Origin: Deltaproteobacteria bacterium HGW-Deltaproteobacteria-1
Lineage (GTDB): Bacteria > Desulfobacterota > Syntrophia > Syntrophales > Smithellaceae
DNA length: 48,190 nucleotides
Assembly: GCA_002840635.1 (NCBI GenBank)
Contig: PHBN01000002.1
Span: 1-48,190, forward strand
Reading direction: 5' to 3'
A program made the position numbers and the translations under genes. A model generated the notes under the pieces. That model was given only the letters and a program-made list of their open reading frames with translations. It did not search any database and was not told the DNA's origin. Of this stretch, positions 809-36,179 are shown in pieces (the first letter of the stretch is position 1; every line of letters begins with the position of its first letter).

Positions 809-1090
809 ATGATGAATAATATTATTTCTATCGTTGTTTCGCTTTTGACTTTAACACACGTCGGTATTCTACTTGTGATAGTAGGTACTGCGTTCCTAGC
901 TTATGCAGTAAAGGTCGAAAATAAATACACACTTTCCGCAAGAAGTAAGGAAAATAAAAAACGATTAGAAGACATTGTTAAAAGATCAGAAGATGGGTCA
1001 TACTATGAACCATCTATCGTTCGTGTCGATAAAATATTTTTTAGGTTGGGCCTTGCATTCGTGGCTTTAGGTAGCCTAATGCAATGGTAA
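809..1090 (+). CDS. small membrane protein (cassette ORF)
   Basis: 93-aa ORF with hydrophobic N- and C-terminal segments around a charged loop. AT-rich and followed by a degenerate attC. Confidence 0.5.
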   Translation: MMNNIISIVVSLLTLTHVGILLVIVGTAFLAYAVKVENKYTLSARSKENKKRLEDIVKRSEDGSYYEPSIVRVDKIFFRLGLAFVALGSLMQW

Positions 1091-1112
1091 AAATATGTTA
1101 AAAAAATAAAGA

Positions 1113-1166
1113 TATATAAAATAAATGCGGTTATTCGCTGCGCTCTGGCATTGCTTTACGTTGCTG
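1113..1166 (+). repeat. attC-like site (degenerate)
   Basis: TATAAAATAAATGCGG..TTCGCTGCGCTCTGGCATT..ACGTTGCTG. It shares the central CGCTGCGCTC loop with the sites at 7096 and 10602. The R' core is GTTGCTG at 1160-1166, and the R'' core lacks the AAC. Confidence 0.45.
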
Positions 1167-1196
1167 TGAACCAAATGAAATTGAAGAAGGCTCTAT

Positions 1197-1988
1197 ATGA
1201 AAAAAATAATAGTTTTTGTTTTATTTATCATTACATTCAATTACGTCATCTATAATCAAACAGCTTTTGCTGAGACTATTATTCATTCAGCCTTATATGG
1301 TTTCTCAATTAACATTCCGGATGATTGGTCTAAAAGGAAACCAACAAAATCATGGACATATTTAGTCTATGCAAATATTGAATCTGGCGCGAATATGAAT
1401 ATAAACGTTATAAATGCAAAGGGTCTTTCTTCAATAAAACAACCAACATTGGGACAGATTTTCAACCCATACTATGAACATGCTAGAATAATAGAAAAAG
1501 TTTATGAAACTGATTCCTCATCAAACATTGATTTTTTCAAATGCGTATATAGATGGGAAAATGGTGAATTTAGAAATCAGTATGAAGGAAAGCATAGATT
1601 ACAGTATTATGCAGTGCAATGGGTTAAAGACGAAAAACTATTTACTTTAACCTTTACAGATTCTGAAATAAATTTTCAAAATAATATTCAAAAATTTAAA
1701 AGAATAGCCAATTCCATTAAATTCGATAAGATCAGTGGTGAGGAATGGGAAGGGGGAAAAATGCTTATAGAAGAGAGAGGAAAAGTTATAGCTGCTTGTG
1801 AAAAAGGCATATTAAGTCAAGGCTATTCCTATGTTAAAGTACAAAAATATTGTAAGTGTTCTGTGGATTATATTACAGAATTAGCAAATAAATATTCTAA
1901 GGCACAGTTAAAAGCATTACAGAAAGAAAAAGGGGGAAACTTTATTGAAAAAGATGCGCTTCAAATGTGTAAGCATTATTTGGAGTGA
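1197..1988 (+). CDS. secreted protein of unknown function (cassette ORF)
   Basis: 263 aa with a signal-peptide-like N-terminus, MKKIIVFVLFIITFNYVIYNQTAFA/ET. Followed by an attC. Confidence 0.7.
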   Translation: MKKIIVFVLFIITFNYVIYNQTAFAETIIHSALYGFSINIPDDWSKRKPTKSWTYLVYANIESGANMNINVINAKGLSSIKQPTLGQIFNPYYEHARIIEKVYETDSSSNIDFFKCVYRWENGEFRNQYEGKHRLQYYAVQWVKDEKLFTLTFTDSEINFQNNIQKFKRIANSIKFDKISGEEWEGGKMLIEERGKVIAACEKGILSQGYSYVKVQKYCKCSVDYITELANKYSKAQLKALQKEKGGNFIEKDALQMCKHYLE

Positions 1989-2005
1989 AATTACTTACAT
2001 TAAAT

Positions 2006-2072
2006 CCATAACCCGTAGCTAGAGCCGATCGCAAGCCCGCTGGGCTGCTCCGGTTCAGCTTTTCGATTATGG
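2006..2072 (+). repeat. attC site (R' core mutated)
   Basis: R'' is CCATAAC at 2006-2012. The R' position reads ATTATGG at 2066-2072, so it matches the reverse complement of R'' except that G is replaced by A in the GTT triplet. Confidence 0.65.
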
Positions 2073-2081
2073 GATAAAGAA

Positions 2082-2576
2082 ATGAAATATATTTTTATAC
2101 CAATAACGATGTTCGTGTGGTTCTTGACTTCTTTTTATGGAATACATATCGCAGCTATCGGAATGGCATTTATTTTTTCACTAAGTTGGCTATGGGTAAT
2201 AATTGGGTTCCCATTCCTGATAGTACCAATTTTTTGGATTTCACATAGTATCCCTTCTCTGTTGCGTGTATTATTTATTAAGATCTACGGAGTATCCTGG
2301 TTTTGTTGCATTGTACATTCGCTCGCCGGGGTTATTGGGCTTGTCGGAATAATAATGTTTTATAGCGAAAGTCCGCCGGTACTGGTAATTGGGGATGAAT
2401 CATTTTTCATTTTAAGAGGAATGTGGAAGACCGCGCCATTCAAGACAGTATTTATTGCTATACCATTCCTGGGGATTGTAATTTCCATACTTTGGTCAAG
2501 TATTATTGCACCCATATACATTAAGCTATCTGGTGTTCAGATATCAGATATAGAAAAAGATAAACAAAACCCATAA
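2082..2576 (+). CDS. polytopic membrane protein (cassette ORF)
   Basis: 164 aa, almost entirely hydrophobic helices. The stop codon lies inside the R'' core of the following attC. Confidence 0.7.
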   Translation: MKYIFIPITMFVWFLTSFYGIHIAAIGMAFIFSLSWLWVIIGFPFLIVPIFWISHSIPSLLRVLFIKIYGVSWFCCIVHSLAGVIGLVGIIMFYSESPPVLVIGDESFFILRGMWKTAPFKTVFIAIPFLGIVISILWSSIIAPIYIKLSGVQISDIEKDKQNP

Positions 2577-2626
2577 CAAGGGCAATACACCCGATCGCTA
2601 CGCTCCGGGTGATTTTTTCGTTGGAC
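2571..2626 (+). repeat. attC site
   Basis: R'' is CCATAAC at 2571-2577. The stem is CACCCG/CGGGTG around an ATCGCTACGCTC loop. R' is GTTGGAC at 2620-2626. Confidence 0.8.
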
Positions 2627-2643
2627 GATAGAAGGAGCATAAG

Positions 2644-3420
2644 GTGCCTAAACCAGAAGTACGGGATGTGTTACTGCAGGTCATTTCGGAGTGCGCTCCC
2701 AAAAGGCCTGGAGACAGTAACCTTCAGTCGCGGAGCATCCTCACTGAAGTGCGCGACCGACTTGGTGGCGCTCGCGATCATGTTCTGGAGGAAGCGATTC
2801 TGACTGCCTTCCATGATCTGCTTCGAACCGGATACCTTGCTTGGGGATTCAACCTCGCTAACCCCGACCCTCCATTCTTTCATCTTACCGAGCAGGGCAG
2901 GAAATCACTAGCTAACTTGAGTCGCGATCCAAGCAATCCGGCCGGTTACTTGGCTTCGCTCTCTCAGGCTGTGACATTGAATTCGATTGCAGACGCCTAT
3001 CTTCGGGAGGCTCTCGCGTGCTTTGTAAACGATCTTCCGAAAGCGTCGGCTGTCATGGTCGGCGGTGCATCAGAAAGTATCGCTCTTGAACTCCGAGATG
3101 CAGTTGTTGGGAAGCTGCAGTCGATGAACAGAAACGTTCCAAGAGGTATGGATGATTGGCGTTTGAAGGTTGTGCTGGATGCCATGTATTCATTCCTTGA
3201 TCAGAACTCTGGGCAGATGAAAAAGGAGCTACGGGATTCGTTCAGGTCTTATTGGTCTGCCTTTTTGCAGCAGATCCGCACGGCTCGGAATGACGCAGGT
3301 CATCCTTCCAGCGTTGATCCGGTTACGTTCGATACAGTTCACGCATCACTTTTGATTTTCCCGGAGCTAGCCAAACTCACGTTTGACCTTCTCCAATGGA
3401 TCAATCATGAGTACAAGTAG
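2644..3420 (+). CDS. HEPN-like protein (R-x4-H motif) with an N-terminal wHTH-like region; cassette ORF
   Basis: GTG start preceded by GAAGGAG. 258 aa. The motif RNDAGH (R215-H220, nt 3286-3303) sits in a helical C-terminal half and fits the HEPN R-N-x3-H signature. The ORF is visibly more GC-rich than neighbouring cassettes. The function is inferred from this motif alone. Confidence 0.6.
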   Translation: MPKPEVRDVLLQVISECAPKRPGDSNLQSRSILTEVRDRLGGARDHVLEEAILTAFHDLLRTGYLAWGFNLANPDPPFFHLTEQGRKSLANLSRDPSNPAGYLASLSQAVTLNSIADAYLREALACFVNDLPKASAVMVGGASESIALELRDAVVGKLQSMNRNVPRGMDDWRLKVVLDAMYSFLDQNSGQMKKELRDSFRSYWSAFLQQIRTARNDAGHPSSVDPVTFDTVHASLLIFPELAKLTFDLLQWINHEYK

Positions 3421-3432
3421 CAAAGAAGAGGC

Positions 3433-3487
3433 GTCCAACATTTAGCTGCACCAGATTCGGGCGAAGGAACGGCCCTCTATGTTGAGC
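3433..3487 (+). repeat. attC site
   Basis: R'' is GTCCAAC at 3433-3439 and R' is GTTGAGC at 3481-3487. Both match the canonical consensus. The cassette start TTGGAC at 2621 is the exact reverse complement of GTCCAA. Confidence 0.85.
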
Positions 3488-3519
3488 AATTTGTTATACG
3501 CCAAGAAAGCGGAGGAATA

Positions 3520-4854
3520 ATGCCGAGAGTATTTCTCAGTTATTCACACGAAGAGCCAGAACATGATCAATGGGTCATGGATTTGGGGAAGCTGCTTCGG
3601 GAGAACGGGGTTGACGCGTACCTTGATAAGTGGGATCTGATACCGGGGCAAGATACAACCTACTTCATGGAATCTCAAATAAGAGACTCCGATTTTGTGA
3701 TTCTCATATGCACGCCTATTTATGCTGATAAATCTAATATCCCCCGTGGTGGTGTAGGTTACGAAAAGAACATTATCTCCGCAGAAATGTTACAGGCTAA
3801 CGATTTGCGCCCAAAATTCATCCCAGTTTTGAGAAGAGGAACGTTCGATAGCTCCTTGCCCACCTACCTTGGGAGCAAGTATGCCGTAGACTTTCGAGAC
3901 GATAAGGAACAACAGAATGCACTTGATGAATTACTTAGAGCCGTCTATAAACAACCTCATCCTGAGAAACCGCCTCTTGGATCCAACCCCTTTAACCAAC
4001 CCGTCACCCTAACTGTCGACTCATCAATGATTGCAGTGAAATCATCCGACCTTAAGCTTGAAGTCGTTCAGCAAGATCAAGACATTCATGTATGGGAAAA
4101 AGAAGCACGCGGACGTTTCGAGTATCTTTGTGCGAGTAGACTGAACAAAGAGAAGGTAAACCCTTTCGCTGACGGCTTTTGGCAAGCCAGCTTCGTTCTT
4201 CTGTCTAAGCCTGATATGAGTGGCCTCAACAAGTTTTTAGAACAGCTTAGGGCATCCGAAACGCACCGAACCGGGTGGGATATTGGGTGGGTACCGACTC
4301 GTTCTGGGATAGCACCATATCCATACCAAGGCGGAATCGAAGTCTGGCTAGCTGAGGATGGTGACAAGGGGCCAAGCCACTCAGATTTCTGGCGCGCCGA
4401 ACCGGTGGGCCGTTTTGCTTTGTTCAGGGGTTATCAGGAAGATGACTCTGATTTCCAACATCAACTTAACTTGAAGGAGAGAATCATCGATTTCTCTTTG
4501 ATCCTGTGGCGCATATCAGAGCTTCTTCTGTATATTGATAGCTTCGCAAAACAGATGTCAGTTGGAGATTCCATGGCAGTTCTGAAGATAGCATGGACAG
4601 CTTTGAATAACCGAAGGATTGGTTATCACAAGGCAGACTTCGATAAGATATATGAAAACTACATTTGCTGTCAGGACACGGTAGATTCAATGTATAAAAT
4701 TCTATCATGCGCTAATATTAAGAAGAATCTGATACACGATGTACATGAAATCACCTTACCACTTTTCGAAGCCTTTAACTTCTTCTCAGTATCGGAAGAA
4801 CAAATCAAAGATCATATAGCAAAGCTGTTCGATCCAGAGAAAGAGGGCGTATAA
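3520..4854 (+). CDS. TIR-domain protein with an uncharacterised ~300-aa C-terminal domain (cassette ORF)
   Basis: GGAGG lies 6 nt upstream of the ATG. The N-terminus MPRVFLSYSHEEPEHDQWVMDLGKLLRENGVDAYLDKWDLIPGQD...SDFVILICTPIY follows the typical bacterial TIR pattern F-[LI]-S-Y-S. I recognise no motif in residues ~150-444. Confidence 0.8.
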   Translation: MPRVFLSYSHEEPEHDQWVMDLGKLLRENGVDAYLDKWDLIPGQDTTYFMESQIRDSDFVILICTPIYADKSNIPRGGVGYEKNIISAEMLQANDLRPKFIPVLRRGTFDSSLPTYLGSKYAVDFRDDKEQQNALDELLRAVYKQPHPEKPPLGSNPFNQPVTLTVDSSMIAVKSSDLKLEVVQQDQDIHVWEKEARGRFEYLCASRLNKEKVNPFADGFWQASFVLLSKPDMSGLNKFLEQLRASETHRTGWDIGWVPTRSGIAPYPYQGGIEVWLAEDGDKGPSHSDFWRAEPVGRFALFRGYQEDDSDFQHQLNLKERIIDFSLILWRISELLLYIDSFAKQMSVGDSMAVLKIAWTALNNRRIGYHKADFDKIYENYICCQDTVDSMYKILSCANIKKNLIHDVHEITLPLFEAFNFFSVSEEQIKDHIAKLFDPEKEGV

Positions 4855-4905
4855 CCATGGCATCCACCGGACGGCTAAAACCGCCGGTGATGCCTGCCGT
4901 TGGCC
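4849..4905 (+). repeat. attC site
   Basis: R'' is GTATAAC at 4849-4855. The stem is GGCATC(C)ACCGG/CCGGTGATGCC with one unpaired C. R' is GTTGGCC at 4899-4905. Confidence 0.75.
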
Positions 4906-4922
4906 GCCGCGCTGCGCGCTTC

Positions 4923-5138
4923 GGCCAACGGCGGAACTAAGCTACCGCTTTTCAGTTCCTTTTTGGCGCCTGACAATCTATGCGTTTTATGATAATGCAG
5001 TGTATATAAAATAATTATTAGGCCTTGCGCGCTGATTCGCACGACGCCAACAAGTCACTGAAGTCGGTTGGCATTTCACATGCAAAGGAAGCTTCGCTTC
5101 CAGCATGTTAATGCCACCGCTTAGTTCCGCCGTTGGGC
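4923..5138 (+). repeat. composite or over-long attC-like structure (ORF-less interval)
   Basis: GGCCAAC-GGCGGAACTAAGC at 4923-4942 is the inverted repeat of GCTTAGTTCCGCC-GTTGGGC at 5119-5138. The 176-nt interior contains further hairpins. Confidence 0.45.
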
Positions 5139-5143
5139 ATACA

Positions 5144-6214
5144 ATGGTAACTAGAAAAGAACTAACTGAAAGAATAGAGAATATGAGTAGTAATTCTTAT
5201 GATGCCGTTTTCTATAATTCTTTTGTTCTGCCACGTGAAGCGTTATCAATATTAGCCTTTGTATATGATAAAATTCATTTGCCAGGTGTGCATATAAACA
5301 TTAATGGATTAGACAAAAATGAACTATTTAAACAGATTGAATCAATCAGGAAAGGTGGAATTCGTGATACAGACACTTTAGATCAATACCACGCTATGAT
5401 AACTGCATTAATTTATTCATATTGCCCATCTGTATTTCAACTTTCAAAACATGAGAGAAAAGCTTTTGGCTCACTCGAAGATGGTGCAGGAAATTTAGCC
5501 AAAGAAATTGAAGAACTTTACTTCGGTCCTCCCAAGCCAGGATTTATTCCCACAATAGCAACCGGTCATTGTGTACCTCTTCCAGGAGGTGCTTTCATAG
5601 ATGTTCCAGCAAAATGGACTTACCCAGCTAATTCATTAATTTATTCGTCGCAAGAACATTTGCCGCTTATAACCACTGATCCCACAATGCCGATTCCTGG
5701 ATTACCGTCTGAAGTAAAATCAAACGCCAAAATATTATCTACAATTTTAGCAATGGAGTGCATCAAGCTTGTTTTGCCAAATATAAAAACTATTGAACCT
5801 TGGGAAATTGAAGAAATTAAAGAAAAGACAAAAGAATATTTTGTACCGTTTAAATTGAGGATGTTGAAACTTTCAAAGGTATTGAATAGTGCCATATCTT
5901 CTAGTTCAACGACAGACGAAATAATAAGAGAAGCAAAATTTATATTTGAATCTGAAGTGGAACCAGAAATGATTGAGTTAAAAACAGCTATATCTCATTC
6001 TGGGCAACCCTGGCATAAAAGACTGATTGATTTGACAAAAGATATACCGCAGTTAGTCTTAGGATTCACTACGCTACCATCAAATATAGCAATTGCTAAT
6101 GTCCTAGCAAAGCTCGGAGTATTTTTCTCGGATATTCGAAGTGAACAATTATCAAAAGACGAGGCCAGAAAACGCGGAGGGCTATATTATCTATTAAAAC
6201 TCTCTCAAAAATAA
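5144..6214 (+). CDS. hypothetical protein (cassette ORF)
   Basis: The ORF-track start at 5105 falls inside the attC arm. The first ATG after the G|TTGGGC junction is at 5144 (MVTRKELTERI...). No recognisable motifs. Confidence 0.65.
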   Translation: MVTRKELTERIENMSSNSYDAVFYNSFVLPREALSILAFVYDKIHLPGVHININGLDKNELFKQIESIRKGGIRDTDTLDQYHAMITALIYSYCPSVFQLSKHERKAFGSLEDGAGNLAKEIEELYFGPPKPGFIPTIATGHCVPLPGGAFIDVPAKWTYPANSLIYSSQEHLPLITTDPTMPIPGLPSEVKSNAKILSTILAMECIKLVLPNIKTIEPWEIEEIKEKTKEYFVPFKLRMLKLSKVLNSAISSSSTTDEIIREAKFIFESEVEPEMIELKTAISHSGQPWHKRLIDLTKDIPQLVLGFTTLPSNIAIANVLAKLGVFFSDIRSEQLSKDEARKRGGLYYLLKLSQK

Positions 6215-6222
6215 TAAAAATT

Positions 6223-6285
6223 ACCCAACAAGACGCTTCACTGGACCCGGCAAACAGCGCCGGTCCAGTGAGCTTCTCGTTAGGC
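6223..6285 (+). repeat. attC site
   Basis: R'' is ACCCAAC at 6223-6229. The stem is GCTTCACTGGACCCGG/CCGGTCCAGTGAGC with unpaired bases. R' is GTTAGGC at 6279-6285. Confidence 0.85.
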
Positions 6286-6291
6286 AGGAAT

Positions 6292-7074
6292 ATGGAAAAC
6301 ATCGTTCCTAAAAAGGTGTTTCTTGATAACTGTATTGTCAGTATTAGTGACACTGTGCAAGGTGCCCAGAAAAGCACCAAGGTCAGCTGGGGTGGAAAAG
6401 AGCATACAATTCAGGTTTCTGGGTTTGAGGGAAAACCATTACCCAGGGACGACGAGGTCTGGAAACGAGAGCAGATTGAATGTATGCCAACCATCGGGAG
6501 ACTGGCAAGACAGAACGTTATTGCTTTATCTATATACGTGGAAATCCAGTTCGAGGGGTGGAAACGTCCTAGGTCATTTCCAGCTACCGCCATCGGAAAT
6601 GTGTTTAACGGAATAGAATTCGAATATGTAGATGCCGCTGTTGAGAGGTCATACTTTTTTCAATCTTCACTGGATGATCATATTGATAACCAAAGAATGA
6701 TTGACTTTTGCAAGTGGCTATTGAAGATCAATCCGGATATTTTAATTGAAAAAATCATGAAGGCTAGGGATTTTCCCGATTTTTTATTAATTAATTTAAG
6801 GAATGTTGAGAGATTCAGAGAGCTCTGCAAGGGGTTGTCTGAGAAGCAGTATCCAGATGCATTCCACCTCTGGACTGCTGAGGTCAATGGTGCGGATTGC
6901 TTCTTAACCATTGACAAAAAATTTATTCGGGTAATGACTGAAACAAATAAAGCAAAGATGCCTTGTCCGCCACTTTCACCGTCTCAACTGCTTGACGAAC
7001 TAGAAATACATGAAAGAGATCCTATTGAATACGTGGAGGGAGCCTTCTATGACATATTCGGGAGGCGTAGCTAA
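6292..7074 (+). CDS. putative PIN-like domain protein (cassette ORF)
   Basis: The first ATG after the cassette junction is at 6292. The N-terminal VFLDNCIV and C-terminal DAFHLWTAEVNGADCFLTIDKKF resemble the first and last acidic motifs of PIN domains. This is weak, motif-level evidence only. Confidence 0.5.
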   Translation: MENIVPKKVFLDNCIVSISDTVQGAQKSTKVSWGGKEHTIQVSGFEGKPLPRDDEVWKREQIECMPTIGRLARQNVIALSIYVEIQFEGWKRPRSFPATAIGNVFNGIEFEYVDAAVERSYFFQSSLDDHIDNQRMIDFCKWLLKINPDILIEKIMKARDFPDFLLINLRNVERFRELCKGLSEKQYPDAFHLWTAEVNGADCFLTIDKKFIRVMTETNKAKMPCPPLSPSQLLDELEIHERDPIEYVEGAFYDIFGRRS

Positions 7075-7095
7075 CATGAGTGGTATTCCGGCCTT

Positions 7096-7167
7096 GCCTA
7101 ACAATTTGCTGCACGCGGCAAAATTACTCGCTGCGCTCCTAATTTTCTGGTGAGCAAAGCGTTAGCA
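7096..7167 (+). repeat. attC site
   Basis: R'' is GCCTAAC at 7096-7102, the exact reverse complement of the junction GTTAGGC at 6279. The stem is TTTGCT(G)CAC/GTGAGCAAA with one unpaired G. R' is GTTAGCA at 7161-7167. Confidence 0.8.
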
Positions 7168-7174
7168 AAAATAT

Positions 7175-7915
7175 ATGAATAATAAATTAAAACACTGCTA
7201 TGACCAGATTCATCAGATACTTGGCAAAGATATTGAACCTTATGAGTCTGTTGAATTGGTGGAGAGATATCGCCAATATTGGAAACCAACGGGCAAAATC
7301 AGAGTCATTCTTTTGGCTGAATCACATGTATTCACAAGCGATGATGACCGAAAGATTAAAATACCTCAGTTACCCAATCTGCCTGGCTACGAAACACAAT
7401 ACGCAAAATTTGTCTATTGCATTGGCTACGGAGAAAGACTATTGACAGGAAATCCTTCACATCCTAAACGCGATGGCACACCTCAGTTTTGGAAAATATT
7501 TTATAGCTGTGACAATCTTATTCAAGAGAAGAATGATTTCCATCCGATTTTATCAAAAACAAAATATGAACAAAGAGTAGAGAATAAAATCAAACTTTTA
7601 TTGCGCCTTCAGCGGAACGGCATTTGGCTCATCGATTCAAGCATCGTCGCGCTATATAACAACGGAGAAAAACCTAATAATAACATCATTTCATTGGTTA
7701 TAAGAAAGTCATGGGATTGCTATATCCATAATGTAGTCGCAGAGGCAAATCCGGATTATGTGATTTGCGTTGGCAAAACCGTCGCAAACGTCTTAAAGCG
7801 CGACATTGAAAAGTTAGTTGGTAAACGTTGCACGGTTTTATCCCAACCAAATGCACATCTTCTTTCAGAAGAACATATGGCAAACTTTAGGCAATACAGC
7901 AGAATATGCCGCTGA
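7175..7915 (+). CDS. hypothetical protein (cassette ORF)
   Basis: 246-aa ORF starting 8 nt after the cassette junction. No motif recognised. Confidence 0.7.
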   Translation: MNNKLKHCYDQIHQILGKDIEPYESVELVERYRQYWKPTGKIRVILLAESHVFTSDDDRKIKIPQLPNLPGYETQYAKFVYCIGYGERLLTGNPSHPKRDGTPQFWKIFYSCDNLIQEKNDFHPILSKTKYEQRVENKIKLLLRLQRNGIWLIDSSIVALYNNGEKPNNNIISLVIRKSWDCYIHNVVAEANPDYVICVGKTVANVLKRDIEKLVGKRCTVLSQPNAHLLSEEHMANFRQYSRICR

Positions 7916-7926
7916 CATTAATTTAA

Positions 7927-7983
7927 TGCTAACAAATCAGTATAGCGGACTCGCTACGCTCCCCGCTGATTTCGTAGTAAACT
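7927..7983 (+). repeat. attC site (R' core non-canonical)
   Basis: R'' is TGCTAAC at 7927-7933, the exact reverse complement of the junction GTTAGCA. The stem is AATCAG..AGCGG/CCGCTGATT and the loop contains CGCTACGCTC. The R' position reads GTAAACT at 7977-7983, so the GTT is lost. Confidence 0.7.
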
Positions 7984-8001
7984 CATAAGGGAGAATTAAG
8001 A

Positions 8002-8439
8002 ATGAAATTATTTTTAAAGGCGACTCTAGTATTGCTACTATTTATTGTTTGCGGGTGTGCTACAACACCAGTCAGACATTCTGATGCGATTAAAGTCCCC
8101 CCAGATCGGGTACTTTCTTATCAAGATGTAAATAATAAAACTACGTCCGCAATTGTTATTACAAGAGATGAAGGGTACTTAGGGTCTGGTTGCTATTACG
8201 CTGTTTTTATTAATAGTATATTATCAGCACGATTCAATCCTGGAGAAACTGCAAAATTTTCTATTGAACCTGGAGAAATAATTTTAAAAGTAGGTAGGGA
8301 TCTGCTAGGGAATGGTTTATGTGGCGTCGGACAAGATGAATGGACACAAAGAGAAACAATATTGCGCGCGCATGAAACTAAATATTTTCGTTTAACGATA
8401 GATGTAAACGGTAAAACAGATATACAAAGGGCAGATTAA
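8002..8439 (+). CDS. putative lipoprotein (cassette ORF)
   Basis: 145 aa with the signal-plus-Cys segment MKLFLKATLVLLLFIVCGCATT. GGGAG lies upstream of the start. Confidence 0.7.
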   Translation: MKLFLKATLVLLLFIVCGCATTPVRHSDAIKVPPDRVLSYQDVNNKTTSAIVITRDEGYLGSGCYYAVFINSILSARFNPGETAKFSIEPGEIILKVGRDLLGNGLCGVGQDEWTQRETILRAHETKYFRLTIDVNGKTDIQRAD

Positions 8440-8518
8440 ACAAAAATATCTAAAAGAATATTTTAGATCATGATAGTCCATAGTTTGAGGGGACATTGGG
8501 ACGAACAAAAAATAAAGC

Positions 8519-8574
8519 GTTTAACAAAGGCAACACAGCCAATCGGTGCGTTCTGGGTAATATTTTCGATAAAA
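8519..8574 (+). repeat. attC site (R' core non-canonical)
   Basis: R'' is GTTTAAC at 8519-8525. The body is homologous to the attCs at 2571 and 8897. The R' position reads GATAAAA at 8568-8574. Confidence 0.6.
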
Positions 8575-8619
8575 GTAAAAAACATAGACTAAATACAATA
8601 TCTAAGAGGAAACAACGGT

Positions 8620-8853
8620 ATGCAAATTAAAAACATAATCTTAGCTATTTTCATTGTTACCGTTCTTGTAGGTTGTGCCCATTACAAGACCACCTTGATC
8701 AATGCGCAGGGAGAGAAGGTGATATGCGAGGCAAACGGAAAGAGTGGCGCCATTAGTGGCTATCATCTGCGCCAAGGATTCGAGGCCTGCATCAACGCTG
8801 CAAAAGCCCAGGGATTCAAAGAAGTATCTCCAATGAATTTAAAACCCGAATGA
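8620..8853 (+). CDS. small lipoprotein (cassette ORF)
   Basis: 77 aa with the lipobox LVGC in MQIKNIILAIFIVTVLVGCAHY. An AGAGGA ribosome-binding site lies upstream. Confidence 0.7.
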   Translation: MQIKNIILAIFIVTVLVGCAHYKTTLINAQGEKVICEANGKSGAISGYHLRQGFEACINAAKAQGFKEVSPMNLKPE

Positions 8854-8896
8854 GATAAAGGCAGGGTTCCATCTAAATTGACATATGAACAAAAAC

Positions 8897-8952
8897 TTTT
8901 AACAAAATCAATACAACCGATCCGTACGATCCGGATGAATTATTTGTTATGT
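8897..8952 (+). repeat. attC site
   Basis: R'' is TTTTAAC at 8897-8903. The body is AATCAATACAACCGATCCGTACGATCCGGATGAAT. R' is GTTATGT at 8946-8952. Confidence 0.75.
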
Positions 8953-8972
8953 GGGGAAGGTGAGAATCTAGA

Positions 8973-9749
8973 ATGAATTATTCTTCAATTATAAATCAAT
9001 TTATAGGTGCGACATGGTATTTTATACTAATCATAATTTTGGTAATTATAATAAAATCTTCTCGGTTCAAAGGCATAACGGGCGAATTCATAGTAAACAT
9101 CTTGGCAAGGATGTTTCTAGATAAGCATGTATACCATCTCATCAAAAATGTGACATTACCAACCGAAAATGGAACGACTCAAATTGATCATATTATTGTT
9201 TCAAAATATGGCGTATTCGTGGTTGAAACAAAAAATATGAAAGGGTGGATTTATGGTGACCCTGACCATCAGACGTGGACTCAAAAGATATACAAGCATT
9301 CAACTAAATTCCAAAACCCTCTTCACCAAAACTACAAGCACCTAAAAACTCTTGAATCCCTTCTTGGACTGAATGATCAGCAGGTTCATTCATTGGTTGT
9401 TTTTGTTGGAGACAGCACTTTCAAAACGGAAATGCCAGAAAATGTAACATATGGCCGCGGTTATGTTCGATTTATCAAATCAAAAATACAGCCTGTCCTC
9501 TCTGAAACAGAGGTTGATGCAATCTTAAGTAAAATCGGCGCCGGCATGTTAACGCGCTCATTTAAAACCAACAGCGAGCATGTAAAACATGTCAACCATA
9601 TCGTAAGCGAAAAGAAGAAGGAAAATACGTGCCCAAGATGCGGTAGCCCCATGGTGTTGAGAGAAACGAAAAATGGTCAAAATGCCGGAAAACAGTTTTT
9701 GGGATGTTCAAGATATCCAAAATGCAAAGGTGTTTTAAATATCACATAA
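8973..9749 (+). CDS. NERD-domain nuclease-like protein with a C-terminal topoisomerase-type C4 zinc ribbon (cassette ORF)
   Basis: It has an N-terminal TM segment and the NERD core IDHIIVSKYGVFVVETKNMKGWIYG. The C-terminus CPRCGSPMVLRETKNGQNAGKQFLGCSRYPKCKG forms the zinc ribbon. The stop codon lies inside the attC R'' core. Confidence 0.85.
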   Translation: MNYSSIINQFIGATWYFILIIILVIIIKSSRFKGITGEFIVNILARMFLDKHVYHLIKNVTLPTENGTTQIDHIIVSKYGVFVVETKNMKGWIYGDPDHQTWTQKIYKHSTKFQNPLHQNYKHLKTLESLLGLNDQQVHSLVVFVGDSTFKTEMPENVTYGRGYVRFIKSKIQPVLSETEVDAILSKIGAGMLTRSFKTNSEHVKHVNHIVSEKKKENTCPRCGSPMVLRETKNGQNAGKQFLGCSRYPKCKGVLNIT

Positions 9750-9808
9750 CCCATCGCTAAGTCTGATCGCGGTCCTGTGGGTCGCTCCGGCTTAACTTTT
9801 CGTTACAC
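9744..9808 (+). repeat. attC site
   Basis: R'' is ACATAAC at 9744-9750, the exact reverse complement of the junction GTTATGT at 8946. R' is GTTACAC at 9802-9808. Confidence 0.8.
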
Positions 9809-9872
9809 CTTTCAAATAGATACAGCAGCTTAGGACACTCAACGAAAGCAACAATTAGACAAAGTTTTTTAA

Positions 9873-10607
9873 ATGGGATGGGACAAATTGATAATTGACA
9901 CAAATTTTAATTTCTACTCCGATTCAAATGGCGGTGACCCTGACAGCACCAGTCCAACACTTCGTAGATACCATAAGATGCTATGGAGTAAACCATTGCC
10001 AAATGGCAGCCTATTTGAATTATTTGACAATAAAAATGATGCTTATTTATATCATAAATCAGGACTTGGAGAATTTTTTTTTGGTAGCGATGCCATAACA
10101 CACTTGTATAAAAATCATAAGAGGAAGCAGTGGCTTACAGAACAAATTCCCAGAGAAGTAAATGAACTTTTTGATACAGGTTCTACTATTGGAGCTTATA
10201 TTGTTTTCCCAAATAGAATTGACTGCAAGCATACAATCAATCAGGCGCGTGGAGTAAATAGTTTAATTGATGATAGATTTGACTTAACGTTAGAATGTAT
10301 TCGTCTTTTTTATCTGGGCCAAGAGAATCCTCTTTATTCCAGTTTATTGAGATATAAAGAATTCTTCGATTTGTTTAGCGATTTTATGGGCTACATCCAT
10401 TTCTTCTTATTGGATGATTTGATTGATGAAAATAGTGATATTAGATTTTATTTGCCATTTGATGGCTTCAAAACTCGTCCAACATTTTCAGATATTGGCC
10501 AATATCTATTATACAAAAAAGGAGTAATAAATTTTATTAAGTCAAGAAATAAACGAATAGAAAATTATATAAAACCACAAAAGACCGAGCATGATACCAG
10601 CACATAA
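9873..10607 (+). CDS. hypothetical protein (cassette ORF)
   Basis: 244-aa ORF whose stop lies inside the next attC R'' core. No motif I can name with confidence. Confidence 0.7.
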   Translation: MGWDKLIIDTNFNFYSDSNGGDPDSTSPTLRRYHKMLWSKPLPNGSLFELFDNKNDAYLYHKSGLGEFFFGSDAITHLYKNHKRKQWLTEQIPREVNELFDTGSTIGAYIVFPNRIDCKHTINQARGVNSLIDDRFDLTLECIRLFYLGQENPLYSSLLRYKEFFDLFSDFMGYIHFFLLDDLIDENSDIRFYLPFDGFKTRPTFSDIGQYLLYKKGVINFIKSRNKRIENYIKPQKTEHDTST

Positions 10608-10674
10608 CAAGGCGCTTCACTCGGACGGCAATTCCGCTGCGCTCCATTGCCGCCAGTGAGCTTGGTCGTAAACC
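10602..10674 (+). repeat. attC site (last recognisable; R' core non-canonical)
   Basis: R'' is ACATAAC at 10602-10608. The arms GCGCTTCACTCGGACGGCAA / TTGCCGCCAGTGAGC are close homologues of the attC at 6223. The R' position reads GTAAACC at 10668-10674. Confidence 0.7.
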
Positions 10675-11049
10675 TTTCAATTGGAAAGAAACACTTAACC
10701 AGACACAACAGTATTGCGACATTGTAGGTGGCGTCAGCAATAGGCGTCCCTATTTTCTTCTTCAGAATCATCCACAAAGTACTGGTTGTAAGGTTGAGTT
10801 TTTGGACATTGGATGCGACTTACAGGATGAAAGATGCGAATGGCTGATAACTGATTTTCCGCTTCTGCTGCTGGCCGCTGCCTTACTGTAAGAGAGTGTG
10901 TAAAATTTTTTACTGATGTTATTTCTTTATGTTGTGAAAGAAATACTTTCACAATAACCTTAATGTTTGCTTAACAAATAAGTTTTCAGTTTGGTGTTTT
11001 TTTACCAAAACAACGATGTAGTGTTCAACAGAAAAGGTGCCCCGAGTAA

Positions 11050-11095
11050 ATTCCTATATTCCTATATTTGTATAGCAATATATGGATATAGGAAT
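11050..11095. promoter_or_regulatory. operator-like repeat set: TCCTATAT twice in tandem plus one inverted copy
   Basis: ATTCCTATAT at 11050-11059 and ATATAGGAAT at 11086-11095 form a perfect 10-bp inverted repeat. TCCTATAT is tandemly repeated at 11052-11067. The set lies ~80 nt upstream of the ORF at 11173. Confidence 0.4.
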
Positions 11096-11172
11096 AACCA
11101 TTTGTCCCTGCCTGAAAAAACTGAGCCTTTTTTTAATTGAATTTTACCTGATAATAATGGATAATACAGCAA

Positions 11173-11502
11173 ATGAATAAAATTAAAGTATCCGTCATAA
11201 TGATTACTATATGGCTCGTGCTCGGGCTATATACTGCATTTGTGGCGATGTGTTATTTTAATTGGTTTGTCACGCGCATCCTAAATGTCAATAATGCAAG
11301 TTATCTGGAAATGCTTGGCATTGTCTGGCTATTTGGACTCTTTAAAGATAGGACCAAAAGTGTAGAACATAATAACAAGATCGATTATGAGAAACATCCG
11401 ACAATCTTCTGGGAACAAGTTTTCATAGGAGTGTTTGAGTTGATAGCAAATAATACCCTGATCTTTGCCATCGGTTATGGACTGCATCTCCTGATTAAAT
11501 AG
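11173..11502 (+). CDS. small membrane protein
   Basis: 109 aa with three hydrophobic helices. No attC follows it. Confidence 0.5.
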   Translation: MNKIKVSVIMITIWLVLGLYTAFVAMCYFNWFVTRILNVNNASYLEMLGIVWLFGLFKDRTKSVEHNNKIDYEKHPTIFWEQVFIGVFELIANNTLIFAIGYGLHLLIK

Positions 11503-32308: not shown

Positions 32309-33298
32309 ATGATAGAAAAGATCGAACCCATCCCCAAATATATTCCTGAATCGCTCCGTCTCGCAGCGATTCAGAGAAAGCTCATTCCGTTTATTGGCGC
32401 AGGGGTCTCTCAACTCGGAGGCTGCCCAAACTGGTGTGAATTTGCCGATGCCTCTCTTAATTTTTTTGTTGAAAAAGGGAAGTTGAATCATGCCCAACTT
32501 GCCCAAATTGCGCCTCTTTCTTCTCGGGTGAAGTTGTCTGTGGCTCTGGAGCTTGAAAAGCAGCACAATCTTCGCATCGACTTCAAGAAATTGCTGACAC
32601 CGTCCGGGGCCAAGAAAAAAATCGGGAATGAGGTTTATGCGAACCTCTCAAGACTGGCAACTACTTTTGTTACGACAAATTATGATGATTGGTTGGACCA
32701 AATTCCACCAGAACCTTTGCGGGCTGATGATCTGGCACCTTCTCAGTCACTGCCACTTGGCACAACACGCCATTGCTTTTACAAACGCAACGATATCTCT
32801 GTTGAGAACCTGGACGTCCCGAATGCAGTGTTCCACATACATGGTTCTATCCGTGATCGAGATAGCATGGTGATAAGGACTGTCGACTACCTCGATTGTT
32901 ATTCAAGCCATAGAATTGATGGAAAAGAGAATCACGAAAATGCGTTCCTGACATTTCTACAAACGCTTTTCCAGTTGAAGAATGTCCTATTCATTGGTTA
33001 TGGCCTTAATGAGATGGAAGTCCTTGAGTACATTGTTCAGAAGGGGATCCGGAAGCCAAAAACTGATGAGGAACCAAGACACTACGTTCTGCAGGGTTTT
33101 TTCACGCACGACTTGGAACTCGCACGCAGTTTGGAGAGCTATTTTCATGAGTTCGGGATCGGGTTACTTCCATTTTCACGTGACGACTGTAATTGGGATC
33201 AACTGATTGCTGTCATTGACTACCTTGCCCGGGAGATTCCCCCTGGTCCACCATTGGCTTTGCCAAAACGCCTCGAAATGGAGGAGTTACTATCGTGA
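32309..33298 (+). CDS. SIR2-like (SIR2_2-type) NAD-utilising domain protein
   Basis: The motifs are LIPFIGAGVSQLGGCPNW, FVTTNYDDWLD (N124), VFHIHGSI (H178) and VLFIGYGLNEMEV, in the order and spacing typical of defence-associated SIR2 domains. Confidence 0.85.
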   Translation: MIEKIEPIPKYIPESLRLAAIQRKLIPFIGAGVSQLGGCPNWCEFADASLNFFVEKGKLNHAQLAQIAPLSSRVKLSVALELEKQHNLRIDFKKLLTPSGAKKKIGNEVYANLSRLATTFVTTNYDDWLDQIPPEPLRADDLAPSQSLPLGTTRHCFYKRNDISVENLDVPNAVFHIHGSIRDRDSMVIRTVDYLDCYSSHRIDGKENHENAFLTFLQTLFQLKNVLFIGYGLNEMEVLEYIVQKGIRKPKTDEEPRHYVLQGFFTHDLELARSLESYFHEFGIGLLPFSRDDCNWDQLIAVIDYLAREIPPGPPLALPKRLEMEELLS

Positions 33299-36135
33299 GT
33301 CTGGTATTAATGACAAAGCAAACGTTGTTTATTAAGCGGATGACCGAAAATCAAGAACAAGCGAAATGGGGTTTTGAGATTCTACTCAAGCAGCAAAATT
33401 TCGCTGAATATTTTGGCCACTTAAAAGATGCTGGCCTTTTTGCTCCAGAACATAATTTGGATCCGATACAATCCGAGGACAGCAGGTTTGTGCGAATCCC
33501 CTATTGGAGTGCGCTTGACTATTTGGTGGCGGTTGCGAAGCAGGCTGGGGCCAACAAAGACATCCCGTTAGCACGAAAGGTTATGGACGTCATTCGCACC
33601 GTAAGTGGCTTTTGCGGTTCCGATGGTAGAAGTCGTGACAATTATCATACCTATATGAAATTTGCCGAAATTCTCGGTCTTCTGCCAACGGCTTCAATTG
33701 AAAAAGAAGACCTCAGTCTTATCCCGATCTGGCTGAGCAGCAAATACGACCGAGGAATGGTTGGTCATTCCCTTGATATAGGAGCACTAAGGCAGTTGCT
33801 AGCGAGCGAAGCGCCTGACGACTGGGAAAAAGCCGTCATAATACTTGACTATTGCACGGCTATTCTTTGGGCTGAGGAAAAAGGCGTTAGTAAAGGGCGG
33901 AAGAAGCCGGTAGCAGTTATTGAGGGCTACTGGTTTAAGGAACTGATCAAACACCATGTAGATATCTTCGGCGCTAAGACAGGCAGAGAAGCGGCTCAGA
34001 TATTCCGTAATAGGCTTTCGGTAATTTTTGGTGAAGAATTCGGCGATCTTCCGACCTACTTGAGCCGACCAGCTGTTGAGGATCATCCGCAAAACCATTC
34101 GTGGGATGAAGTTGTCAACGGAATTGTCGAAGGACTTCGAGATGTCTTATTGTCCTGGATTGAAAACAAGTCAGAGAGTGCTTCTGCATTTGTTGAAGAG
34201 ATCCTTGAAGATAAAGACGAGATGGTTCGTCGGATCGCCATTTATATTCTTGCTCAGCGATGGTCTGTGCTGAAAAGTCTCTATAAGAATATTATTAGCA
34301 CCCACCTCTTTGATTCGAGAAATATCCACGAAACATACCACTTACTCAAAGATCGCTTTTCCGAATTCAGCGATTCGGAAAAGGCCTTAACACTTGAGGC
34401 GATTCGCCAGTTGTCACCACCAGATCATGAAGATCCGGAGCGGCTTCTGAAGCACACGCAGCGAAACTGGCTGTCAGCAATCGCGGGAAAGGGATATGAG
34501 CCAGCTGACAGCTGGTTTAGGGAACTCGATACTGACCCGAACATAGGCAGACTGTCAGAGCATCCTGATTTTCACTCCTATATGGAGACATGGTCTGGTC
34601 CAGGCCCTTCACCCTATTCAACCCAAGAACTGCTTGCGTTTGCAGAGGACGGCAGCTTAATAAAAAGATTAACCGAGTTTCAGCAATCCAGTGATTGGCA
34701 AGGCCCGTCAACCCCATCAATTAAAGCTCTCGTTGATACACTTGAGGAAATTGTAGGAAGCAATCCCCGAAAATTTCTTCAGCTCCTGCCGGCATTCCTT
34801 GATGCCAAAAGGCCATATCAGTATGGTATCATCAATGGTTTCAAAAGTATCTGGGATAAACCTAAGGATAAACAGCAGGATCTTGACTGGGACGTCGTAT
34901 GGGGCCGATTAATTGATTTTTTTGTACAGTTGCTGGATAAACCTGATTTCTGGACAGAAGAAGTAGTCAATGATCATGATTTAACCCCCACTCGTGACTG
35001 GATTCCACCAATAATTGCTGAATTTCTGCATGCTGGTACGAGAGATGACAGTAAAGCCTATCCACCAAAATTTCTTACGAGTACGTTTGCGTTAATAAAA
35101 ATTTTATTAGAGAAATTGGAGCCCGTTGATGATGCGAAAGAGGATGCCATGTTTCAGGCAATCAACTCATCCAAGGGTAAGGCGATTGAAGCACTTTTTA
35201 GCCATACACTCAGGGTGTGCCGCATCAGCGACAAAGAGCGGGGAGATCATACGGAAGCTTGGAAAGATATCAAGCCAACCTTTGATGTAGAACTGGCAAA
35301 ATGCGAGAATACCAATTACGAATTCTCCACTCTGGCGGCGGCTTATCTTACAAATATAGATTACATTAGCCACGACTGGCTGTTGCCAAGTATTGATAAG
35401 ATTTTCCCTAAAGACTTCCCGGAAAATTTTGCATGTGCCATAGACGGATTGGCTTATGCATCAGCATCTCGATCAATCTATCAGCTGTTACTTGAACATG
35501 GAGTGCTGGACAGAGCTTTGCGTCTAAATCGGACTCGAAAGCAAGCTCACAAAAAAATCATTGAACGGATCGCGCTTGCTTATCTCTTGGGCGATGAAAC
35601 ACTGACTTCGCCGAGGTTATCTTATCTGTTCGAAGGGGACCAGATTGAGGATCTTCAAGATGCCATCGGGTTTTTTTCAAATGCAAGAATGCAGGAGTTG
35701 ACGAAAGAACAAATCGAACGGATCATCTGTTTTTGGGAAAAATGCGTGACTTGGGCGGAAGCTTTGACCGAACCGCCGAAATTGCTTCTTTCGAGATTAA
35801 GCCTTTTGATTTGTTACATATCTGTACTTACAGATAGAGAAATCAGACTTTTGATGGCGGTAGCACCGTATATAGATGTTGAATATCGTGCCGACACGTT
35901 TATCGAAGAACTCGATCGCTTGCTTGAGAAAGATCCTGCAACGGTTAGCCTTGTGTTAGGAAAGGCTCTCGAAACATATCAGCCGGACTTTGACTATGAA
36001 GATCGACTGAAGAATCTTCTGAAAAAATTGGCTCAAAGAGGGAGACGCGACGATGTTCTTCGTTACATTGATCGTGTAAGAAGACTTCCTGGAGTTGACG
36101 AGTTATTCAAACAATTGACCGGCGTGTCGATATAA
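33295..36135 (+). CDS. 946-aa protein of unknown function, apparently all-helical repeat-like
   Basis: The GTG start overlaps the SIR2 gene stop (GTGA at 33295-33298), which implies translational coupling. I see no catalytic or NTP-binding motif. The sequence is rich in amphipathic helix-like segments. Confidence 0.75.
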   Translation: MSLVLMTKQTLFIKRMTENQEQAKWGFEILLKQQNFAEYFGHLKDAGLFAPEHNLDPIQSEDSRFVRIPYWSALDYLVAVAKQAGANKDIPLARKVMDVIRTVSGFCGSDGRSRDNYHTYMKFAEILGLLPTASIEKEDLSLIPIWLSSKYDRGMVGHSLDIGALRQLLASEAPDDWEKAVIILDYCTAILWAEEKGVSKGRKKPVAVIEGYWFKELIKHHVDIFGAKTGREAAQIFRNRLSVIFGEEFGDLPTYLSRPAVEDHPQNHSWDEVVNGIVEGLRDVLLSWIENKSESASAFVEEILEDKDEMVRRIAIYILAQRWSVLKSLYKNIISTHLFDSRNIHETYHLLKDRFSEFSDSEKALTLEAIRQLSPPDHEDPERLLKHTQRNWLSAIAGKGYEPADSWFRELDTDPNIGRLSEHPDFHSYMETWSGPGPSPYSTQELLAFAEDGSLIKRLTEFQQSSDWQGPSTPSIKALVDTLEEIVGSNPRKFLQLLPAFLDAKRPYQYGIINGFKSIWDKPKDKQQDLDWDVVWGRLIDFFVQLLDKPDFWTEEVVNDHDLTPTRDWIPPIIAEFLHAGTRDDSKAYPPKFLTSTFALIKILLEKLEPVDDAKEDAMFQAINSSKGKAIEALFSHTLRVCRISDKERGDHTEAWKDIKPTFDVELAKCENTNYEFSTLAAAYLTNIDYISHDWLLPSIDKIFPKDFPENFACAIDGLAYASASRSIYQLLLEHGVLDRALRLNRTRKQAHKKIIERIALAYLLGDETLTSPRLSYLFEGDQIEDLQDAIGFFSNARMQELTKEQIERIICFWEKCVTWAEALTEPPKLLLSRLSLLICYISVLTDREIRLLMAVAPYIDVEYRADTFIEELDRLLEKDPATVSLVLGKALETYQPDFDYEDRLKNLLKKLAQRGRRDDVLRYIDRVRRLPGVDELFKQLTGVSI

Positions 36136-36179
36136 GAGTCACATCATTTCTAACGTAACTATACGATCCCTGAAAAGAA

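Follow-up and report, generated by a model that had tools for sequence, protein, structure and literature searches.

The window analysed here is a 48,190-nucleotide stretch, the whole of a 48-kb contig (PHBN01000002.1, assembly GCA_002840635.1) of Deltaproteobacteria bacterium HGW-Deltaproteobacteria-1, an 83%-complete metagenome-assembled genome (MAG) from groundwater. On its forward strand, at positions 3520–4854, lies a gene for a protein of 444 residues, here called SEFIR-X. A preliminary description made from the letters alone had proposed this open reading frame (ORF) as a compact defence gene with a TIR domain, carried on an integron cassette; the reading frame is real, as judged from the ORF list and its homologs, and its ATG stands behind a Shine-Dalgarno sequence, GGAGG, at 3511–3515, 4 nt upstream. 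The protein consists of a SEFIR (TIR-like) domain in residues 1–150 (3520–3969), predicted to be an NADase effector, a variable disordered linker in residues 155–185 (3982–4074), and an α/β module in residues 186–444 (4075–4851), termed domain X, for which we propose a sensor or regulatory role. From its sequence, SEFIR-X appears to be a known bSEFIR-type head on an unnamed and widespread tail to which no solved structure corresponds.

Results

Homologs and domain layout

A word-indexed search found 212 homologs of SEFIR-X in many metagenomes and MAGs, including those of Nitrospinae and Chloroflexi; the best 120 are nearly all full-length (432–492 aa) and 51–84% identical to the window protein. 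The mean identity to the window protein in the family alignment (A1) is 0.74 over the SEFIR domain, 0.20 over the linker and 0.60 over X (0.70 in the X core), so that X ranks second only to SEFIR in conservation. In the full-length AlphaFold2 (AF2) model the linker residues 153–183 have a predicted local distance difference test (pLDDT) score below 50. The limits of the SEFIR domain follow the Pfam, PADLOC, PDB and Foldseek matches and residue conservation, those of the linker alignment identity and pLDDT, and those of X alignment A1, the AF2 and Foldseek results, a phmmer search and the tree of X domains.

The predicted N-terminal SEFIR domain

The N-terminal part had at first been read as a TIR domain, and its place in the TIR superfamily holds, with Pfam hmmscan matches to TIR_2 at residues 4–139 (E=5.6e-21, 75.7 bits) and to SEFIR at residues 3–125 (E=1.7e-13, 51.5 bits). 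The designation bSEFIR is applied to N-terminal domains that score better as SEFIR than as TIR by HHsearch against PDB and Pfam (10.1101/2022.05.11.491447). In a PDB sequence search the best match of residues 2–153 is the "Sefir domain protein" of entries 5Y8E and 5Y8F (E=6e-25), compared with 0.019 for the best TIR chain, and a search with the family profile gave 5e-30 for SEFIR, 1e-4 for the SEFIR domain of human Act1 and 2e-4 for TIR. The PADLOC model bSEFIR (PDLC03957) matches with E=4.6e-66 and 222 bits (protein residues 2–244, profile positions 39–263 of 412), likewise in a six-frame search of the genome (E=3.9e-66), and hhalign against the N-termini of canonical bSEFIR proteins gives a probability of 100% and E=8e-48. 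The structural comparison agrees, as the top Foldseek matches of the full-length AF2 model are again 5Y8F and 5Y8E (E=1.5e-7, TMt 0.76), with TIR-STING also among the matches of the N-terminal domain. By sequence, the head appears to be specifically a bacterial SEFIR domain within the TIR superfamily. The protein in 5Y8E/5Y8F, BcSEFIR of Bacillus cereus (Yang et al. 2018), is both the best sequence and the best structure match of residues 2–153, but its solved structure holds the isolated domain only.

Residues D36 and E51 and the motif G77-G78-V79-G80-x-E82 are invariant across both SEFIR families, in 107 of 107 sequences, of which 68 are bSEFIR proteins sampled at full length, most of them canonical, and 39 are relatives of the window protein. 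By position, D36 would be the equivalent of the reference residue D40 and E82 that of the catalytic glutamate of TIR domains, and we infer from the sequence that SEFIR-X has NADase activity. In a tree of SEFIR domains the SEFIR-X proteins form a split of their own, fully supported (100/100), apart from the canonical ones.

Domain X as a family and a predicted fold

The preliminary description had left the C-terminal part unassigned, and these approximately 260–300 residues indeed match no curated family: X alone has no Pfam match even at E≤10, none of 5027 PADLOC models matches it, and the full protein finds nothing in NCBIfam beyond the head. The sole family match of X is phrog_38563 (E=4e-10), a family of unassigned function, and a literature search by way of SEFIR, PD-T4-6, SoFic and AlbA_2 found no description of the domain. 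X carries the conserved motifs RTGWDIGWVPTR, PYPY, GIEVWLAE, SDFWRAE, RGYQED and WRxxE, and its invariant charged and aromatic residues are E274, D289, W291, R292, R303, D308, E334 and R365.

Modelled alone, X folds with very high confidence (pLDDT 95, predicted TM-score (pTM) 0.93). A Foldseek search of the C-terminal region, as had been suggested at the outset, returned nothing significant for this model in either PDB (best E=0.034, probability 0.21, TM≤0.27) or BFVD (best E=0.005, probability 0.21). TBP-like and AdoMetDC-like folds recur among the top matches; with E≥0.03, probability ≤0.3 and TM≤0.27 they were set aside as a weak lead only.

Comparison with the canonical bSEFIR tail

The bSEFIR family is a published family of NAD+-depleting anti-phage proteins (Millman et al. 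2022, 10.1101/2022.05.11.491447; Osterman et al. 2024, 10.1101/2024.02.11.579819). It is a single-gene system; the gene that was validated comes from Bacillus sp. NIO-1130 and gives B. subtilis protection from phi29, which is lost in the D40A mutant (10.1101/2022.05.11.491447). SEFIR-X shares with it the N-terminal SEFIR domain and its invariant D36, E51 and GGVGxE82, the single gene of about 450 aa without a partner, and the defence-rich or mobile contexts, whereas the whole C-terminal stretch of about 260 aa is unrelated.

The difference of the tails is supported by several lines of evidence. GTDB species genomes were scanned with a 5Y8E-seeded alignment and the 80 best SEFIR loci were taken, from Alkalihalobacillus, Metabacillus, Paenibacillus, Flavobacterium, Chryseobacterium, Bradyrhizobium, Pseudomonas and Methanoperedens among others. 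A common, "canonical" C-terminus is present in 71 of these 80 loci and X, searched by hidden Markov model (HMM), in none, the loci being ranked by similarity to BcSEFIR, so that the proportions are not population frequencies. The HMM of the canonical C-terminus does not match the window protein and that of X does not match canonical members, even at E≤10, and hhalign of X against the canonical C-terminus gives a probability of 0.2–0.4%, compared with 100% in the SEFIR–SEFIR control given above.

The contrast is also seen within a single locus. On a JGI metagenome contig (3300010294, Ga0126332_10000066; locus L006, 6505–9353) a canonical bSEFIR gene (479 aa) is followed after 57 nt, on the same strand, by a SEFIR-X gene (450 aa), so that two SEFIR heads with unrelated tails stand in tandem. 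The canonical paralog covers positions 35–384 of the PADLOC bSEFIR profile (404 bits), whereas the adjoining window-type protein covers 38–249, much as the window protein does (39–263 of 412), and in BLASTP the alignment of the window protein with this paralog is confined to residues 2–157, with 42% identity over 160 aa. Given the profile coverage, the extent of the BLASTP alignment, the hhalign result and the mutually exclusive HMMs, we rejected the possibility that X is simply the C-terminal part of the PADLOC bSEFIR profile. A third type of tail, matching neither the canonical one nor X, occurs in the nearest full-length relative of BcSEFIR found (81% identity), from Alkalihalobacillus alcalophilus ATCC 27647 (locus L014, 1882–3114). 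The SEFIR head thus occurs with at least three unrelated C-termini, a pattern suggestive of an effector joined to a variable sensor.

Distribution of X and its N-terminal partners

A phmmer search, run exhaustively with X as the query over 1.8 billion representative sequences (E≤1e-3), found the domain in 728 clusters at 50% identity, always at the C-terminus of proteins of approximately 250–1517 aa, and a profile search added 395 further proteins, mostly AlbA_2-X of approximately 440–453 aa. In 81 sampled carriers the N-terminal partners include AlbA_2/Schlafen (25), TIR_2 (12), Pkinase (5), SEFIR (2), ParA-like (2) and AbiEi_2 (2) domains, with single carriers having Fic, PNP_UDP_1, pP_pnuc_2 and HipA-N heads. 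In PADLOC the kinase head matches PD-T4-6 (3e-46), the Fic head SoFic (2e-95) and one of the TIR heads PDC-S66/ThsB; a PDB sequence search with the unassigned heads of two further carriers (P0123 and P0125) gave no match. The partners appear to have been exchanged repeatedly, as in a tree of 114 X domains the partner labels require at least 34 changes, and the clade that includes the X of the window (SH-aLRT 100) combines 18 SEFIR, two TIR, one kinase and two other heads.

X-bearing genes are also found on mobile elements. Gene 78 of Burkholderia phage phi1026b (locus L098, 2817–4211) encodes a 464-aa "ATP-binding protein" that carries X, as do phiE125 gp67 and proteins of 10 related phages; in these temperate Burkholderia phages the X genes occupy the accessory region at the right end, with a RelE-like toxin-antitoxin pair as neighbour. 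Others are located on Sinorhizobium megaplasmids. The source names of X proteins are generic and conflicting, for example "transcriptional regulator" or "ATP-binding protein".

A two-gene version, with a stand-alone X beside a separate effector gene, was considered and finds no support in the two cases checked. These were called as proteins of 259 and 292 aa, but the open frames that hold them extend to 484 and 471 aa (L094, 4326–5780; L096, 1906–3321); their upstream parts match AlbA_2, and both are AlbA_2-X proteins with mis-called starts. Errors in the start codon seem to affect many X-bearing proteins in public gene calls.

Relation to other catalogued systems

An N-terminal toxic enzyme followed by a C-terminal non-catalytic control region in one chain is an arrangement that SEFIR-X would share with the DSR1/DSR2 SIR2 proteins, the PD-T4-6 kinases, SoFic and the single-gene TIR systems, although no PADLOC model matches X. 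In the Fic-X protein the Fic part takes up the whole of the SoFic profile (361 positions), so that X has no place in the catalogued SoFic family.

Two other systems with TIR-like components were considered and rejected. The SPARTA TIR-APAZ proteins likewise have a TIR-like head with a tail of about 250 aa, Foldseek aligns approximately 400 columns to 8K34_A, 8ISY_B and 8QLP_I, and one X-protein carries a pPIWI-associated nuclease domain. However, the root-mean-square deviation is approximately 28 Å, the TM score does not exceed that of the isolated TIR domain, X by itself finds no APAZ or Argonaute chain, and there is no prokaryotic Argonaute neighbour. As for Thoeris (ThsB with ThsA), the ThsB profiles match about 65 residues with no better than E=4e-4 to 7e-3, the score of 21.7 bits for NCBIfam ThcB4 is far below its cut-off of 220, and no ThsA-type gene is adjacent, the adjoining genes encoding a DUF4145/HEPN-like protein and an uncharacterised protein.

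Genomic contexts and origin of the gene

No neighbour is shared across six homolog contexts. The homologs stand next to Type I and MmeI restriction-modification genes, toxin-antitoxin pairs and insertion sequence elements, or alone among housekeeping genes; the latter is the case for the close homologs (74–81% identity), which also have no attC context. Homologs at 71–78% nucleotide identity share with the window only the ORF and up to 27 nt upstream of it, the homology starting at 3493–3520. SEFIR-X is an accessory gene in a mobile, defence-rich context. The absence of a partner gene, which the preliminary description had noted for the cassette, extends to the contexts examined, in none of which a conserved partner was seen. 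The alternative allowed for there, that the C-terminal domain would mark a described TIR system in need of absent partners, finds no support, with no conserved partner and a tail unlike that of any catalogued system.

The GC content had been taken as a sign of recent acquisition from another lineage. The gene (44.6%) does lie above the array mean (39.3%) and the other cassettes (30–42%), but the argument fails, because the value is close to the host genome mean of 47.9% (standard deviation 4.4%), at the 21st percentile of genome windows, and it is the AT-rich array that is the outlier. Foreign origin finds better support in a comparison with 60 relatives, 36 genomes of the same genus and 24 of the same order, all 60 of which lack the gene.

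The surrounding array and the cassette limits

The gene belongs to a run of 12 co-oriented ORFs at 809–11502 with recurring attC-like spacers. An attC-like site on the forward strand at 3433–3487, identified from the sequence and by a core-pair scan, closes the preceding, HEPN-like cassette with R'' GTCCAAC (3433–3439) and R' GTTGAGC (3481–3487), and the SEFIR cassette would have its left limit at the putative crossover point G|TT, 3481|3482. As single-stranded DNA this site folds weakly (−5.9 kcal/mol, z=+0.37), and no extra metagenome contigs map there.

On the right, two adjacent near-perfect GC-rich hairpins (4859–4894 and 4896–4932) directly follow the stop codon; together (4859–4932) they fold with −36.4 kcal/mol (z=−6.2), none of 200 shuffled sequences folding as well, and they are not shared by the homologous loci. 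A GTTGGCC core (4899–4905) lies inside the second, perfect hairpin, which is atypical of attC. An inverted-repeat search further revealed a 216-nt attC-like structure on the forward strand at 4923–5138, with an R''-like GGCCAAC (4923–4929) and R' GTTGGGC (5132–5138), framed by a perfect 18-nt inverted repeat (4925–4942/5119–5136). Of the limits first given for the cassette, 3482 and 4899, the left one therefore fits in its cores, though its hairpin is weak, whereas the right one is ambiguous between 4899 and 5132. With the right limit at 5132, the next ORF would start only at ATG 5144. As listed, that ORF opens at ATG 5105 and runs across the inverted-repeat arm with the GTTGGGC core (5119–5138); the in-frame ATG at 5144 (MVTRKELTER...) is the likelier start of this gene.

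No intI gene was found in the 48-kb window. Elsewhere in the MAG, on the minus strand of a 2.5-kb contig (G000 contig C225, 2157–2567), an integron integrase (TIGR02249, 209 bits) is represented by its C-terminal 136 aa, the fragment running off the contig end. An intI is therefore part of the MAG, but its attI and cassettes were lost in an assembly gap, and so was its linkage to the array in the window.

Variation in the source metagenome is seen nearby. Some metagenome contigs skip the stretch 2066–2583, joining 2065 directly to 2583 or 2588, and this variant represents the natural presence or absence of the cassette that carries the ORF at 2082–2576; the attC sites at 2019–2065 and 2567–2624 have a 10- to 100-fold excess of depth in the metagenome contigs, which confirm that this cassette behaves like one of an integron. 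At 3482, 4899 and 5132 no alternative joints exist in the contigs from three runs, which continue unbroken and with flat depth over 2593–6600, a result limited to assembled contigs, which can hide rare variants. Carriage of SEFIR-X on an integron cassette is thus plausible, supported by the co-oriented array and the presence or absence of the neighbouring cassette, but not by such a variant for SEFIR-X itself.

Neighbouring genes in the window

The cassette preceding SEFIR-X (2644–3420) encodes a HEPN-like protein of 258 aa with a GC content of 51.5% and a sub-threshold match to DUF4145 (E=2.8e-4). Its candidacy as a partner of SEFIR-X was rejected, since it does not stand beside any homolog in the contexts examined. 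Elsewhere the window holds a truncated IS110 transposase gene, Tn7-like tnsA, tnsB, tnsC (TniB) and tniQ genes, Type I restriction-modification, SIR2 and NERD genes, and an Rfam scan of the window found no RNA family. At 32309–40910 a SIR2_2 gene (329 aa) is followed on the same strand by ORFs of 946 and 1576 aa, downstream of the Type I restriction-modification operon and an HTH-M78 peptidase gene; this group may be another NAD+-related defence locus.

Discussion

We regard it as fairly probable that SEFIR-X is a single-polypeptide defence protein of the abortive-infection type, in which a SEFIR NADase is controlled by X. The two modules would be joined in one polypeptide by the disordered linker, and X would keep the SEFIR effector off in uninfected cells. 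On detecting an infection cue X would release the SEFIR domain, probably via SEFIR–SEFIR assembly, and the self-associated domain would, by homology with the validated bSEFIR family, cleave NAD+ to ADP-ribose and nicotinamide, and the loss of NAD+ would starve the infected cell and the phage with it. The effector assignment follows from this homology and from the published work on the canonical family. That the gene is a self-contained NAD+-consuming immune protein, as its designation as a compact defence gene had implied, is very probable from its sequence, although it is not a new kind of system in view of its PADLOC bSEFIR match. For X, the modular distribution, the lack of partner genes and the ability of SEFIR to take different tails suggest a portable sensor or regulatory module. 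Since conservation in X runs deep and includes invariant residues, both charged and aromatic, its cue is more likely a conserved molecular pattern, such as a nucleic-acid form, a nucleotide or a metabolite, than a fast-evolving phage protein.

Several observations weigh against this interpretation. The Pfam bit score of the head is higher for TIR_2 than for SEFIR, and the PADLOC bSEFIR profile is matched in its N-terminal part only, which does not allow the function of the validated protein as a whole to be carried over to SEFIR-X. Promoter and terminator scans around the gene gave chance-level results only and no promoter-like site was found upstream, so that expression would need read-through from the array. 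Finally, sensors that bind phage proteins usually diversify, whereas X is conserved, and it could equally be catalytic or a scaffold.

The conservation of X, with its invariant charged and aromatic residues, is also what would be expected of a small-ligand pocket, and X might accordingly be a receptor for a nucleotide second messenger, like SAVED, STING and CARF, with SEFIR-X as the effector arm of a system akin to cyclic oligonucleotide-based antiphage signalling (CBASS), type III CRISPR or Thoeris whose synthase is elsewhere or absent. TIR-SAVED and TIR-STING provide precedents, the latter being among the Foldseek matches of the N-terminal domain, and the range of effectors paired with X is the same as for CARF and SAVED domains. 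However, no cyclase or other conserved partner is present in nine genomic contexts examined, neither an SMODS CD-NTase nor Csm1/Cas10 is detectable in the 83%-complete MAG, and X resembles SAVED, CARF, STING and SLOG neither in sequence nor in fold, which makes a receptor of this kind improbable.

The invariant acidic and basic residues of X (E274, D289, R292, D308, E334 and R365) can be read in yet another way, as those of an enzyme or toxic effector, with SEFIR serving only as an adaptor for homotypic interaction or oligomerisation, as in IL-17R/Act1 signalling and as first proposed for BcSEFIR. According to a citing paper, Yang et al. (2018) regarded bacterial SEFIR domains as interaction modules, and it is an interface mutation, D40A, that abolishes bSEFIR defence. 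Yet all partners of X are enzymes (NADase, kinase, Fic AMPylase, nucleases and PNP), two killers in each protein would be less parsimonious, the literature attributes NAD+ depletion to the SEFIR domain, whose candidate catalytic glutamate E82 is invariant, and X has no recognisable catalytic fold; we consider a catalytic X unlikely, to much the same degree as a second-messenger receptor.

A silent or decaying piece of mobile cargo, or a gene with a non-immune regulatory role, is less likely still: the missing promoter-like site, the lack of transcript evidence from a sample without RNA runs and database names such as "transcriptional regulator" and "ATP-binding protein" would fit it, but the ORF is intact behind a strong Shine-Dalgarno sequence, the 212 homologs, of which the 120 best are nearly all full-length, keep strongly conserved motifs and therefore point to purifying selection, the surroundings are rich in defence genes and mobile elements, and the database names stem from the AlbA_2 partner or from generic pipelines.

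The bSEFIR family represents one of only about five known types of NAD+-depleting effector domain in bacterial immunity. Automated tools would label the protein "bSEFIR" from its N-terminal domain alone and so hide a different half with a probable role in sensing, and many of the "stand-alone" X genes in public annotation are probably start-codon errors like the two cases checked. The SEFIR head with its at least three unrelated tails constitutes a natural domain-swap experiment, and the X tail is in turn common to kinase, Fic, TIR and Schlafen-type heads. X is also a structural gap, being modelled at very high confidence with no neighbour in the PDB.

More tentatively, and with somewhat less assurance than for SEFIR-X itself, X may be a widespread infection-sensing or regulatory module with a fold absent from the PDB that has repeatedly been joined to toxic heads of at least seven classes, namely SEFIR NADase, TIR NADase, nuclease-like Schlafen/AlbA_2, PD-T4-6-like Ser/Thr kinase, SoFic-like Fic, PNP nucleosidase and pPIWI-associated nuclease. 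Finding the ligand of X would then show how a whole range of single-protein systems is activated, and these would form a super-family of one-protein abortive-infection systems with one trigger logic, of which SEFIR-X would be one member.

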